The position numbers and the translations under genes were made by a program. From assembly GCF_006345805.1 (NCBI RefSeq), contig NW_021826697.1, forward strand, positions 1 through 12,085: a stretch of 12,085 bases of DNA. The letters run 5' to 3'. Of the stretch, positions 3,101 to 12,085 are shown piece after piece. The notes under the pieces are model-generated. The model worked only from the letters and a program-made list of their open reading frames with translations. It ran no database searches and had not been told where the DNA came from. Within the stretch, counting starts at the first letter, position 1. Each line of letters starts with the position of its first letter. This DNA comes from Octopus sinensis. Its lineage: Eukaryota.

Positions 3101-3208
3101 CAGAAACCGACAGTTTGATTATCCAGAATCCAGGTTGAGTGCTTCTCTGGAAATACCCACCTTTATATACTACCCGGACCGAAGATTATATATATATATG
3201 TGTATATA

Positions 3209-3398
3209 GGGAGAGTCTACGACAAAAACAAAAGACGAAGACAGGTGGTGTACAAAACAAACAGATGTATTAGTATAACGCTCAGGAATAGAAAAAGTCT
3301 CTTATGTTTCGAGCCTACGCTCTTCTACAGAAAGGGACACAGAAAAAAAAAACAAGGTGAGAAACAAGGAAAGAAAAAAATGTGTGTAGTGGCTAACA
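3209..3398 (-). mobile_element. Short Penelope-type non-autonomous repeat (family P2) with hammerhead-like motif at 3299-3334
   Basis: Minus strand cttt-CTGTAGA-A-GAGC-gtag-GCTC-GAAA-ca-TA-agag followed by ttcctgagcgttatactaatacatctgtttgttttgtacacc; homologous to 11898-11945 and 11996-12085; abuts (TA)n. Confidence 0.6.
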
Positions 3399-4466: not shown

Positions 4467-4691
4467 TCTCTCTTTTACTCTTTTACTTGTTTCAGTCATT
4501 TGACTGCGGCTATGCTGGAGCACCGCCTTTAATCGAGTAACTCGACACCGGGACTTATCCATTTGTAAGCCCAGTACTTATTCTATCGGTCTCTTTTGCC
4601 GAACCGCTAAGTAACGGAGACATAAACACACCAGCATCGGTTGTCAAGCAATGCTTGGGGGACAAACACAGACACACAAACACACACCGCA

Positions 4692-4741
<50 letters not shown>

Positions 4742-4759
4742 TGTATAATATTAATATAT

Positions 4760-4806
<47 letters not shown>

Positions 4807-5062
4807 GATGTATAATATTATTCTATAATATATATATATATATATATTATATATATAATATATATAGATATTATATTATTACATATATATATACTATATA
4901 CGAACGGCTTCTTTTCAGTTTTCCGTCTCCAAAACCACTCACAAGGTTTAAGTCGGGCCCGGCTATAGTAGAAGACACTTACCCAAGGTGCCACGCAGTT
5001 GGACTGAACCCGGAACCATTTGGTTGGTAACAAGTACTTACCTCACAGCCCTCCTGGGCGCC
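4467..5062 (-). mobile_element. tRNA-derived SINE family A, full-length copy 1, with expanded internal (TA)n (~4695-4900)
   Basis: Head with A/B-box-like sequence (ggctgtgagg...gggttcagtcc), body ccttgggtaagtgtcttctactatagcc, internal microsatellite, 3' part ending ggcggtgctccagcatagccgcagtcaaatgactgaaac plus (AAGAGTAA)-like tail; colinear with 5246-5718. Confidence 0.88.
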
Positions 5063-5104: not shown

Positions 5105-5781
5105 AAAAGCACAGGCTTAAACTTCTGAAGGTTCAAATTGGTGGAGTCCATCATATCCTTCTCAGGTGGCCCACTTATTGACCTCGAAAGAACCGAAAGC
5201 GGCTTTACCCCCTAATAGCTTGTAAATTCAAAATGTAAGATCATAGGCTTAGGAGTGGCGCTGTGTGTAAATAGCTTGCTTACCAACCCATATTCCGGTT
5301 CAACCCACTGGTGGCGCCTTGGGCAAATGTCTTCTACTGTAGCCTCGGGCCGACCAAAGCCTTGTGAGTGGATTTAGTAGACGGAATTGAAGAGCCCTCG
5401 TCGGATATATATAGAGAATATAGATATATAATATAAATATAATAATATATACATATGTGTGTGTGCGTGGTGGGGGGGTGTATATATATTTGTGTGTCTG
5501 TGTTTGCCCCCCTTCACACACACAACATCGCTTGACAACCGATGCTGGTGTGTTTACGTCCCCTTAACTTACCGGTTCGGCAAAAGAGACCGATAGAATA
5601 AGTACTAGGCTTACAAAGAATAAGTCTTGGGGTCGATTTGCTCGACTAAAGGCGGTGCTCCAGCAAGGCCACAGTCAAATGACTGAAAAAGTAAGAAGAG
5701 TAATAAAAATAAAAGAGTATCCGAATGAAATGATACTAAGCACTTTAACCGGCGTGCTAATGATTCTGCCACTTGGCCGCC
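5105..5781 (-). mobile_element. Older tRNA-derived SINE family B, split in two (5105-5240 and 5719-5781) by the family A insertion
   Basis: 5719-5781 (-) reads ggcggccaagtggcagaatcattagcacgccggttaaagtgcttag, a tRNA-like head homologous to 7198-7239. 5240-5105 (-) continues with tcttacattttgaatttac...ctttcggttctttcgaggtcaataag, a degenerate B-box/body. The join relies on my recollection of this family's consensus. Confidence 0.6.
5246..5718 (+). mobile_element. tRNA-derived SINE family A, full-length copy 2
   Basis: ggcttaggagtggcgctgtgtgtaaatagcttgcttaccaacc...ccttgggcaaatgtcttctac...internal TA/TG tract...ggcggtgctccagcaaggccacagtcaaatgactgaaa plus A-rich tail; reverse-complement homolog of 4467-5062. 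Confidence 0.9.
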
Positions 5782-6653: not shown

Positions 6654-7023
6654 GGAGGTGCAATGACCTAGTGGTTAGGGCAGCGGATCCGCGGTCATAG
6701 CATCGCAGTTTCGATTCTCAGACCGGGCGTTGTGAGTGTTTATTGAGCGAAAACACCCAAAGCTCCACGAGGCTCAGGCTGTAGGGTGGTGGTGGTGAAC
6801 CCTGCTGTACTCTTTCGCCACAACTTTTCTCTCACCCTGTATTTCAAAGGGGCCCAGCCTTGTCACACTCTGTGTGTCACATTGAGTCTCCTCGAGAACT
6901 ACATTAAGGGTACACGTGTGACTGTGGAGTGCTCAGCCACTTGCAGGTTAACTTCACGAGCAAGCTGTTCCGTTGATCGGATTAACTGGTACAACCCTCG
7001 TCGTCGAAACCGACGGAGTGCCA
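6654..7023 (+). mobile_element. tRNA(Arg)-like-headed SINE family C (resembles octopus OR-type SINEs)
   Basis: A box TGACCTAGTGG (6664-6674) and B box GTTTCGATTCT (6708-6718) at tRNA spacing, followed by a ~300-bp body; flanked on both sides by (TG)n/(TA)n. Family name is from memory. Confidence 0.8.
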
Positions 7024-9691: not shown

Positions 9692-9861
9692 TTATTCGTG
9701 GTTTAACCAGGCTACCGTTAGTTTCATGTTAAGAGAGGTGTATTTCCTAAAAAGTTTCAAGCGTTTTGCTTGGGACGTCCCACGCAACAGACCTGATCAT
9801 TTTTGAGAGATATACTTCTCTTAACATGAAACCAATGGTAGCCTGGTTAACCCACGAATAA
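9692..9861. mobile_element. 170-bp loopless palindrome, probable MITE/foldback element
   Basis: Arms 9692-9776 and 9777-9861 align ungapped at 69/85 identity (47/52 in the outer part), centred on TGGGAC|GTCCCA; TA at both termini could be a target-site duplication. Confidence 0.75.
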
Positions 9862-10011: not shown

Positions 10012-10030
10012 CATACATACATTCTCCTAA

Positions 10031-10161
10031 GTTTCCGACGAAGAGCTCCGCTCGAAACGTTAAACCCTCCTTCTTCCCTTCTTTCCTGAGCGTCCAATAA
10101 TACTATACTTGTTCCACGTCCTCGCGTTGTTGTGTTTTCTCTTTGTGTTTTCATGTTTGGA
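10031..10161 (+). mobile_element. Short Penelope-type repeat (family P1) with hammerhead-like motif at 10031-10065
   Basis: GTTT-CCGACGA-A-GAGC-tcc-GCTC-GAAA-cg-TT-AAAC then ttcctgagcgtccaataatac...; inverted homolog at 11647-11766; flanked by TA/TG microsatellites. Confidence 0.65.
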
Positions 10162-10166
10162 TTTAC

Positions 10167-10349: not shown

Positions 10350-10720
10350 ATAGCGATGACGGAAACGAAAGGGACAAAGTTTCACGTTCAAACTCGGAAA
10401 ACCATTTAACAAACTGGTTTATATGAACGATTTTCCGTCTCTCACGCTTCCTCTTAAGCCACTGTTTGCATTCTTTTCCTTCAGCTCACCTCTCAAGTCA
10501 ACTTACCCTCCTCTTCAGCCTCGCCCACCTCTTTAATATATTTTTATATGCATTTCCTTCTCCCACTCTGACACAGTTTTTCAAATATTGAGTAAGCAAA
10601 ACCTCTGAAGCCATCCTTTAATTTTCTCTCTTTTCTTCTTCATCTTCAAGAAGGATTCTGCCTGAAACGTTGGATATTTTGTTCTCTATGAAAAATTCAC
10701 TGTACTGTTCCTGTTTTCAC
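10350..10720 (+). mobile_element. Possible decayed Penelope-like element 3' end (GIY-YIG C-terminal remnant, pyrimidine-rich tail, degenerate hammerhead at 10642-10675)
   Basis: 10354-10398 reads R*RKRKGQSFTFKLG and, after a frameshift, 10413-10439 reads TGLYERFSV, resembling the 'RKxxExxxIFxLGT..PxGLNERFS' end of Penelope ORFs. Downstream: atcttcAAGA-AGG-attctg-CCT-GAAA-CGTT-ggat. Confidence 0.4.
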
Positions 10721-10724
10721 GCTT

Positions 10725-11180: not shown

Positions 11181-11646
11181 TATGGTAGAAGTTAACTTGA
11201 GGCGAATAAGACCCATTTTCTAAACGCAGTACTTTCATACAAATATTGCAAGTCCTATAAATTCCTGCGCGCGAATTTGTTTGGAGCTGATGATGTGCTG
11301 TGCAACACTGAATCCTACTTTCCGTTGCAATCAGTTCTAATCCCAGTGGCGCAACAGACGCTGGGACAACCAGAAACCGATCGCACTTCAGGTTTTCTTT
11401 AATATGAGTTTTCCTTCTCCTAAAAGGAAGTTCCGATGAGAACTAGAGCTTCTCCACTCCCAGTAGTTCAGATGCTAATTAAACCATTGCTGGGACCCTA
11501 ACAGGTGCTGCTACACGGGGTTCGAACAGACCTAGGAATATTAGTGGCTAAGAAGTGGATCCACTCCCCTCAAACCCTGGAACTCACGTACTACGTGATA
11601 CTGTTTAAAGTCATACTCAAAACAAGTATATATATATATATATATA

Positions 11647-11836
11647 TCCAAACAAGAAAGCACAAAAAAACACAACAACGCGAGGACGTGGAACAAATAT
11701 AGTATTATTGGACGCTCAGGAAAGAAGGAGGGTTTAACGTTTCGAGCGGAGCTCTTCGTCGGAAACATAAGACAAGGAAAGATCCAGAGAAGGGAAAACA
11801 GCAGGAAAAAAATCGCCAACGGCACACACGAGGTCA
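11647..11836 (-). mobile_element. Penelope-type repeat family P1, second copy, hammerhead-like motif at 11732-11766
   Basis: The 35-nt motif is identical to 10031-10065 on the opposite strand; the downstream ~85 nt is also homologous; sits between (TA)n and (CA)n. Confidence 0.65.
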
Positions 11837-11881
11837 CACACACACACACACACACACACACACCACATATATATATATATA

Positions 11882-12085
11882 GTTAGAATTTACAAGACGG
11901 GTGTGTACACAACAAACAGGTGTATTAGTTTAACGCCCGGGAAGTGTTAAACGGCGACCTTTGGGCTGCCTTTGTTTGGGGTTATTTCTGTGTTCCATTC
12001 TGTCGAAGAGCGTTGGCTCGAAACATAAACGACTTTCCCCCTTCCCGACCGTTAAACTAATACATTTGTCTGTTGTTTACACCCC
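11882..12085 (+). mobile_element. Penelope-type repeat family P2: partial minus copy (11898-11945) joined to a plus copy (~11971-12085, cut by window end) with hammerhead-like motif at ~11998-12029
   Basis: CTGTCGA-A-GAGC-gttg-GCTC-GAAA-ca-TA; 11898-11944 and 12041-12085 are inverted homologs and both match 3241-3290. Confidence 0.6.

Follow-up and report, generated by a model that had tools for sequence, protein, structure and literature searches.

Short repeats in the genome of Octopus sinensis carry hammerhead-like motifs whose cores are non-canonical. Are these motifs ribozymes that still cut, a fold kept for another use, or remnants, and to what kind of mobile element do they belong? We addressed these questions in one window of 12,085 nucleotides, which is the whole of a 12-kb contig in a 2.72-Gb genome; the genome-wide counts below refer to that genome. 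Our analysis shows that the motifs belong to the minimal type I hammerheads and lie in the pLTR at the 3' end of Penelope-like elements (PLEs) from two Neptune-type lineages, here called P1 and P2.

Results

Four hammerhead-like motifs lie in the window, at 10031-10065 (+), 11732-11766 (-), 3299-3334 (-), and 11996-12031 (+). The initial annotation had listed the same four, placing the last at about 11998-12029, which is corrected here. A relaxed descriptor (CNGNNGA, an optional A, a stem-loop, and GAAA), composed after the motif had been seen, returned exactly these four sites, compared with a chance expectation of 0.01 per window from 100 first-order Markov sequences. A fifth, decayed motif at 10641-10675 had been overlooked. 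The elements, with the anatomy of the motif at 10031, are as follows:

10022-10165, + strand: 3' end (pLTR) of a Neptune-type P1 PLE, truncated at its 5' side and flanked by TA-rich microsatellites
10031-10065, + strand: P1 minimal hammerhead with U4C core, recognized from the sequence and from 6,273 exact genomic copies (core to ACG)
10031-10034, + strand: 5' arm of stem I
10035-10041, + strand: core, followed by the extra A at 10042
10043-10053, + strand: stem II with loop UCC
10054-10057, + strand: GAAA
10057-10060, + strand: palindromic ACGU, followed by H17, a U, at 10061
10062-10065, + strand: 3' arm of stem I
11646-11838, - strand: second P1 copy, C4 subfamily, starting 5' at the common ATGTG truncation hot spot; hammerhead at 11732-11766
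3208-3396, - strand: P2 copy with A6U core, N7 = A subfamily; hammerhead at 3299-3334
11982-12085, + strand: older, decayed P2 copy with A6U core and N7 = C, cut by the contig end; hammerhead at 11996-12031
11881-11944, - strand: short fragment of a P2 tail, inverted and facing the 11982 copy head-to-head (self-BLAST, 11900-11944 against 12085-12041)
10560-10723, + strand: decayed end of an older PLE-like family, P4; hammerhead-like motif at 10641-10675

All 40 scored genomic matches to the copy at 10022-10165 had 90 to 100% identity, and its relatives continue 5' into a frame encoding RT and GIY-YIG. Its H17 coincides with the base at which cleavage had been proposed. The second P1 copy is 87.6% identical to it and groups with C4 copies in trees built from the flanks. 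The hammerhead at 3299-3334 bears two decay changes (G16.2>A and one stem I base), and the older P2 copy is 82% identical to 3247-3348 of the other. The head-to-head inverted arrangement beside it is typical for PLE insertions (PMC8557442). P4 had seven other genomic matches at 71 to 82%, four of them with motifs; in these relatives the core is canonical, CUGAAGA, and stem I is of the AUCC:GGAU type.

Some differences among the window copies are traits of a family, and others belong to single copies. P1 and P2 truly differ in their loop (UCC in P1, GUAG in P2) and in the outer pair of stem I (G-C in P1, C-G in P2). Loop variation had been noted before and is real to that extent, but the GUUG of the 11996 copy is copy-specific decay: among the first 100 P2 matches listed, the loop was GUAG in 98 and GUUG in none. 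The AGAG wobble in stem I of the 3299 copy, previously taken for a stem that differs and still pairs, is likewise decay of that copy, as P2 subfamily consensuses show CUUU:AAAG. The palindromic ACGU credited to P1 is present there but is not peculiar to it, since the P2 family has it too. Both P2 copies in the window read ACAU through CpG-type G>A decay, and ACG follows GAA in 28 of 30 pattern-picked P2 loci.

The window holds other repeats besides. A GC-rich run of mixed trinucleotide repeats occupies positions 1-2300, and two inverted pairs of a common interspersed repeat lie at 4475-5049 (80% over 305 bases) and 5260-5703 (75% over 207 bases). The repeat at 6655-7020 has a tRNA-like head, with A- and B-box-like words recognized by eye, and is likely a SINE; ARAGORN found no tRNA gene in the window, this interval included. 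Between microsatellites at 9692-9861 is a 170-base near-palindrome, 81% self-complementary, possibly a two-armed mobile element.

The link to Penelope pLTRs that had been suggested is borne out by what lies upstream of the motifs. When the upstream flanks of 120 loci were aligned, a few long copies emerged. Six of these, when extended, proved in both families to encode RT, a CX4CxxC linker, and a GIY-YIG domain 5' of the motif. Of the 14 long P2 stretches, six carry a pair of same-strand motifs spaced about 4.4 to 4.5 kb apart, and in five of these six the pair encloses a stop-free frame of 820 to 1009 codons. Similarly, 2 of 14 P1 regions have 1008-codon frames with a C4 motif at each end, 6.1 to 6.3 kb apart. 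Thus, both P1 and P2 have the partial-tandem pLTR-ORF-pLTR structure of EN+ PLEs, with a hammerhead in each pLTR. The motif is non-coding and sits about 110 to 130 bases before the 3' end. In Pfam searches of one P2 locus (L187), whose frame lacks an in-frame N-terminus, RVT_1 was detected at E = 1.3e-7 and GIY-YIG at E = 0.008, the latter weaker than the curated cut-off. The P1 and P2 proteins are 67% identical over 710 amino acids, and the P2 protein shares 42 to 59% identity (at most 59%) with the 120 outside homologs listed, which are unnamed proteins. The elements carry a CX2-5CxxC linker and CCHH-type cysteines within GIY-YIG, as do Neptune and Nematis. They probably belong to Neptune (or Nematis), an assignment made from linker and cysteine motifs and (TA)n targeting. 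The Hydra clade was rejected on cysteine motifs.

The 3' UTR of P1 is very long (about 2.7 to 3 kb) and rich in microsatellites. At L124 (5440-8170), L322, and L323, about 2.7 kb of AC/TACA-rich sequence belongs to the element and is copied along with it, and P1-type elements may seed microsatellites in the host.

Targeting of (TA)n, proposed from the window, is supported by 87 of 90 genomic copies that lie at such sites against a background of 40%. Copies share one fixed 3' end, which abuts (TA)n, and differ at their 5' ends; all 30 young P2 ends run into a TA-type repeat. At two loci (L318, 1770-2500, and L082), P1 U4-type ends sit inside P1-type coding sequence, nested in relatives and not in (TA)n.

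P2 has been active recently enough to leave identical copies. In a search with its endonuclease, 60 of 150 scored matches were 100% identical over 129 amino acids, the query included. All 30 such loci that were read have the motif 1.1 to 1.4 kb downstream of the match start; none has A6, and the exact CUGUUGA core is present in 27, the other 3 having small indels. Furthermore, in contigs from runs under three other organism labels, the young P2 end shows no difference over 106 to 116 bases across the core. The variant tables of those contigs were left out of per-site conservation because known N7 variation is missing from them.

The initial annotation suggested that each family has its own fixed core change, and for P2 this was confirmed. 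A6U is fixed in P2, as U6 occurs in 14,893 exact genomic copies and A6 in 172. The right half of the P2 motif had 17,523 exact genomic matches, and reversed-pattern controls for the P1 and P2 exact counts gave 0. When 50 P2 loci were picked by the tail motif only, a sample free of right-half selection bias whose cores were read by eye, 36 reached the core, all with U6, and 14 ended short. An A6 subfamily of P2 was rejected, because the 30 A6 loci read are spread over all subfamilies and the whole tree. Among the matches listed, the N7 = G subfamily seems enriched for A6, since it accounts for about 3 in 10 A6 copies and about 1 in 8 U6 copies, an excess that may be more than age alone explains. 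G17 occurs in only 100 of the 14,893 copies, a background level.

For P1 the claim was too broad. U4C is the trait of a subfamily, since C4 occurs in 6,273 exact genomic copies and a sister subfamily with canonical U4 in 2,484. CpG decay as the sole source of the U4 class was rejected, as U4 copies keep their own flank bases and clades; individual C4>U4 decays do exist (locus L088). In the order of P1 subfamilies, U4C arises once and H17 changes from U to C. C4 marks the younger subfamilies, with copy divergence falling from 0.064 in U4 groups to 0.024-0.028 in C4 groups, and the direction from U4 to C4 rests on this divergence, the root of the tree being uncertain. In the youngest P1 group stem I is weaker, with a U-U mismatch. 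A generic canonical motif of similar size had 6,291 genomic matches (control, 7), and most of the 100 matches listed belong to the U4 class of P1 or to P3, a sister family.

To place changes along the lineages, trees were built from the flanks only (104 P1 and 85 P2 rows). These gave ladder-like lineages, although the alignments are short and leave many open forks, and subfamilies were drawn by hand along the ladder. Across nine P2 groups, divergence from the group consensus falls from 0.16 to 0.014. Against an expectation of 25 changes, none was seen in the 30 core and stem columns; there were 6 changes at N7 and 3 at H17. Because many of these copies had been picked by motif patterns, we repeated the count on the 49 of 62 copies that the hammerhead pattern had not picked, using seven subfamily consensuses. 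Again there were 0 changes in the 30 columns. All flank columns together predicted 20.2 (P = 1.7e-9), the 3' flank predicted 17.4, and the most conservative set, 3' columns that are never T, predicted 6.5 (P = 0.0015). N7 again had 6 changes and H17 had 3, none of which produced a G. A residual bias favors conservation in the right half of the motif, where the collected copies had at most four mismatches. G8, G12, C3, G5, A9, A13, A14, and the ACGU palindrome never changed along the P2 lineage, and ACGU, the extra A, and G10.1-C11.1 are in all subfamily consensuses. Loop II of P2, expected to be free, also changed 0 times, which fits protein recognition. In P1, mostly with pattern-picked copies, there were 4 changes in the 30 columns versus 20 expected. 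Hammerheads accept any base at N7 and any except G at H17, and their stems stay paired (PMC7151607). Variation in P1 and P2 follows this map except at U6 and C4.

Covariation of stems I and II, suggested earlier as a check, was found: six of eight pairs have double changes across five to six families. The pairs were 87.5% paired, a level reached in 0 of 500 shuffles, for which we give no probability because the 17 rows, from related families, were picked by hand. The companion check against Rfam came out otherwise. Its hammerhead covariance models had no hit to the motifs at E <= 10, and there was no hammerhead among 150 of the 242 rows from a scan of the window. The CUGANGA core of the min-HHR is found in neither the P2 (U6) nor the P1 C4 copies. 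A pattern scan of metagenomes gave three matches, none with stem I, that we judged to be chance. In folding predictions, the hammerhead is not the minimum-energy fold as monomer or dimer, in variant or canonical copies. The predicted probability of stem I is raised by C4 (0.08 to 0.27) and by U6 (0.09 to 0.33) because both weaken a competing hairpin. For the youngest P1 it is 0.00, so we base no mechanism on folding.

Discussion

Our results suggest that the short copies in the window are most plausibly autonomous elements truncated from the 5' side, because the same pLTRs flank coding frames and because the copies have fixed 3' and variable 5' ends. The initial annotation had proposed instead non-autonomous elements of Penelope origin, which would form a SINE-like or retrozyme-like family built from pLTRs. 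Such derivatives of PLEs are described (bioRxiv 10.64898/2026.07.22.740005; PMC8557442), and in a crude motif tally 33 of 60 P1 copies start in the same short ATGTG region, some 85 bases 5' of the core. Yet 15 of the same 60 copies reach further 5', in both U4 and C4 subfamilies (12 are shorter than the ATGTG start), and the 5' ends of P2 are scattered from -1 to beyond -1,499. The same ends flank long RT and GIY-YIG frames in both lineages, and at one locus (L318) a U4 pLTR is fused to a P1-type 5' UTR and ORF start. A retrozyme-like organization also fits poorly. The copies in the window are solitary, with no tandem monomer arrays there, and their ends belong to coding elements, so the non-coding unit of tandem monomers that characterizes retrozymes was not found. 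The loci read include one close same-strand pair of P1 (L349) and one of P2 (L275). We consider a non-autonomous family very unlikely. Close one-subfamily pairs, inverted or on the same strand and 0.3 to 1.2 kb apart, occur at L070/L071, L235/L236, L275, and L349; those on the same strand could supply two motifs in one transcript.

What, then, do the motifs do? We think it reasonably likely that these are the minimal hammerheads of two autonomous, (TA)n-targeting Neptune-type lineages that kept spreading with one fixed non-canonical base each (A6U in P2, U4C in the younger P1 subfamilies), and that they act as slow ribozymes, which would depend on a partner copy or on the element's protein. 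Target-primed reverse transcription starting at the fixed 3' end would generate the copies, and their 5' truncation would often fall at TA or TG microhomology. Two motifs would pair through ACGU into a double hammerhead, or a motif would fold on the RT-EN protein, and the RNA would be cut after H17 at a low rate. Selection would act on the RNA of the master element; the window itself holds solitary, truncated copies that are probably inert and carried along. We favor a slow, assisted ribozyme because positions 4 and 6 have natural low-activity precedents. Specifically, the U4C hammerhead of a viroid that is still infectious and the A6C hammerhead of phage Bcep176 have low but detectable activity (PMC3088659, PMC7151607), and the phage hammerhead favors Mn2+ (PMC7151607).

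An argument can be made that nothing is cut. The fold may have been kept as a scaffold recognized by the RT-EN protein or a host factor, with A6U and U4C tolerated or even favored and cleavage dispensable or harmful to the template; we regard this as possible, though on balance unlikely. Two independent lineages fixed core changes that are predicted to lower activity and then made the youngest copies, and loop II of P2 is invariant. By analogy, A6U or U4C may leave next to no activity: in a pairwise mutant scan activity was low for each single change within the CUGA turn (PMC9901934), and even the canonical min-HHRs of PLEs cleave very slowly (PMC4209133). Two further points weigh against a slow ribozyme, namely that the active fold is not the predicted minimum and that stem I of the youngest P1 has a mismatch. 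In PAc, the Poseidon element of Anolis, catalytic mutants insert normally in vitro and no RNA-seq reads end at the cut site (Frangieh et al. 2024, PMC11167929), and Naiads proliferate without canonical hammerheads (PMC8557442). Against a scaffold, the sites that stayed unchanged in P2, together with an H17 that never became G, fit the pattern that catalysis would leave, and both fixed changes fall on positions with known low-activity variants in nature (PMC3088659). Nevertheless, an RNA that has this three-dimensional fold but does not cut would likewise vary most freely at N7 and H17. In its boldest form, which we put forward tentatively and with more doubt than belief, the hammerhead is a non-cutting fold selected for RT-endonuclease binding, and two sister lineages, each having independently disabled the CUGA turn, came to be the youngest and most abundant families as their sisters with canonical cores grew old. 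That the motif is a dead relic, carried neutrally and altered by ordinary decay, is hardly credible. Individual window copies do bear decay changes, but the variants are in the masters and not only in the copies, and along the lineage the flanks have changed far more than the motif. The 49-copy recount already largely refutes this reading.

The role of PLE hammerheads has been described as unclear (PMC8557442), and one biochemical study found cleavage to be protein-dependent and dispensable for insertion in vitro (PMC11167929). Octopus offers matched natural pairs within one genome, the U4 and C4 sister subfamilies of one element, along with a U6 lineage of seven to nine datable steps. These pairs provide a test of whether a PLE needs RNA cutting. 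In addition, descriptor searches that fix CUGANGA miss P2 and the C4 copies of P1, which amount to at least 21,000 exact variant motifs, whereas canonical motifs of comparable size number 6,291.

Lunse et al. 2017 (RNA Biol 14:1499) reportedly catalogued many PLE hammerhead variants, and such cores may be among them. That article lay outside the coverage of our literature search, which returned no account of P1 or P2 or of a PLE hammerhead with A6U. That PLEs carry abundant hammerheads and target (TA)n was known before; what appears to be new, within that coverage and on sequence grounds, is the presence of U6 and C4 cores in PLE lineages.

PLE hammerheads have been known since 2014 (Cervera and De la Pena 2014, PMC4209133), and the octopus motifs share much with those metazoan min-HHRs, including a place in both pLTRs, a short stem I, an extra nucleotide between A9 and G10.1, the G10.1-C11.1 pair, a palindromic 15.2-16.2, and thousands of solitary motifs from truncated copies. 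The extra A, once likened to that of the CChMVd viroid, is thus normal for this class (PMC4209133). In contrast, all 56 representatives in Fig. S3 of that paper, collected with a descriptor that fixed the core, have CUGA or UUGA, and none has U6 or C4. Stem II is only 4 bp here, and cephalopods are absent from that set. Metazoan min-HHRs cleave weakly as dimers (PMC4209133; review, PMC6765202). Relative to the Neptune and Nematis EN+ PLEs of Craig et al. 2021 (PMC8557442), the octopus elements differ in their non-canonical hammerhead cores and in the very long, microsatellite-rich 3' UTR of P1.

PAc, which also has its hammerhead in a PLE pLTR, cuts only with the element's protein and serves as a model for protein-assisted cleavage; it belongs to the Poseidon clade and has a canonical core in a motif that overlaps the ORF start, whereas here the motif is non-coding and near the 3' end (PMC11167929). 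Metazoan non-LTR retrozymes share a type I hammerhead and a connection to PLEs (bioRxiv 10.64898/2026.07.22.740005, PMC7229834), yet they are non-coding tandem monomers (bioRxiv 10.64898/2026.07.22.740005), while the octopus motifs are mostly solitary ends of coding elements. The closest parallels in the core itself are the viroid U4C and phage A6C hammerheads, which alter the same two positions (PMC3088659). Position 6 is U in P2, a base absent from the natural variants in the accessible parts of PMC3088659 and PMC7151607. The viroid and phage cases are single isolates with full stems, whereas in octopus the changes are fixed in thousands of minimal motifs without stem III.
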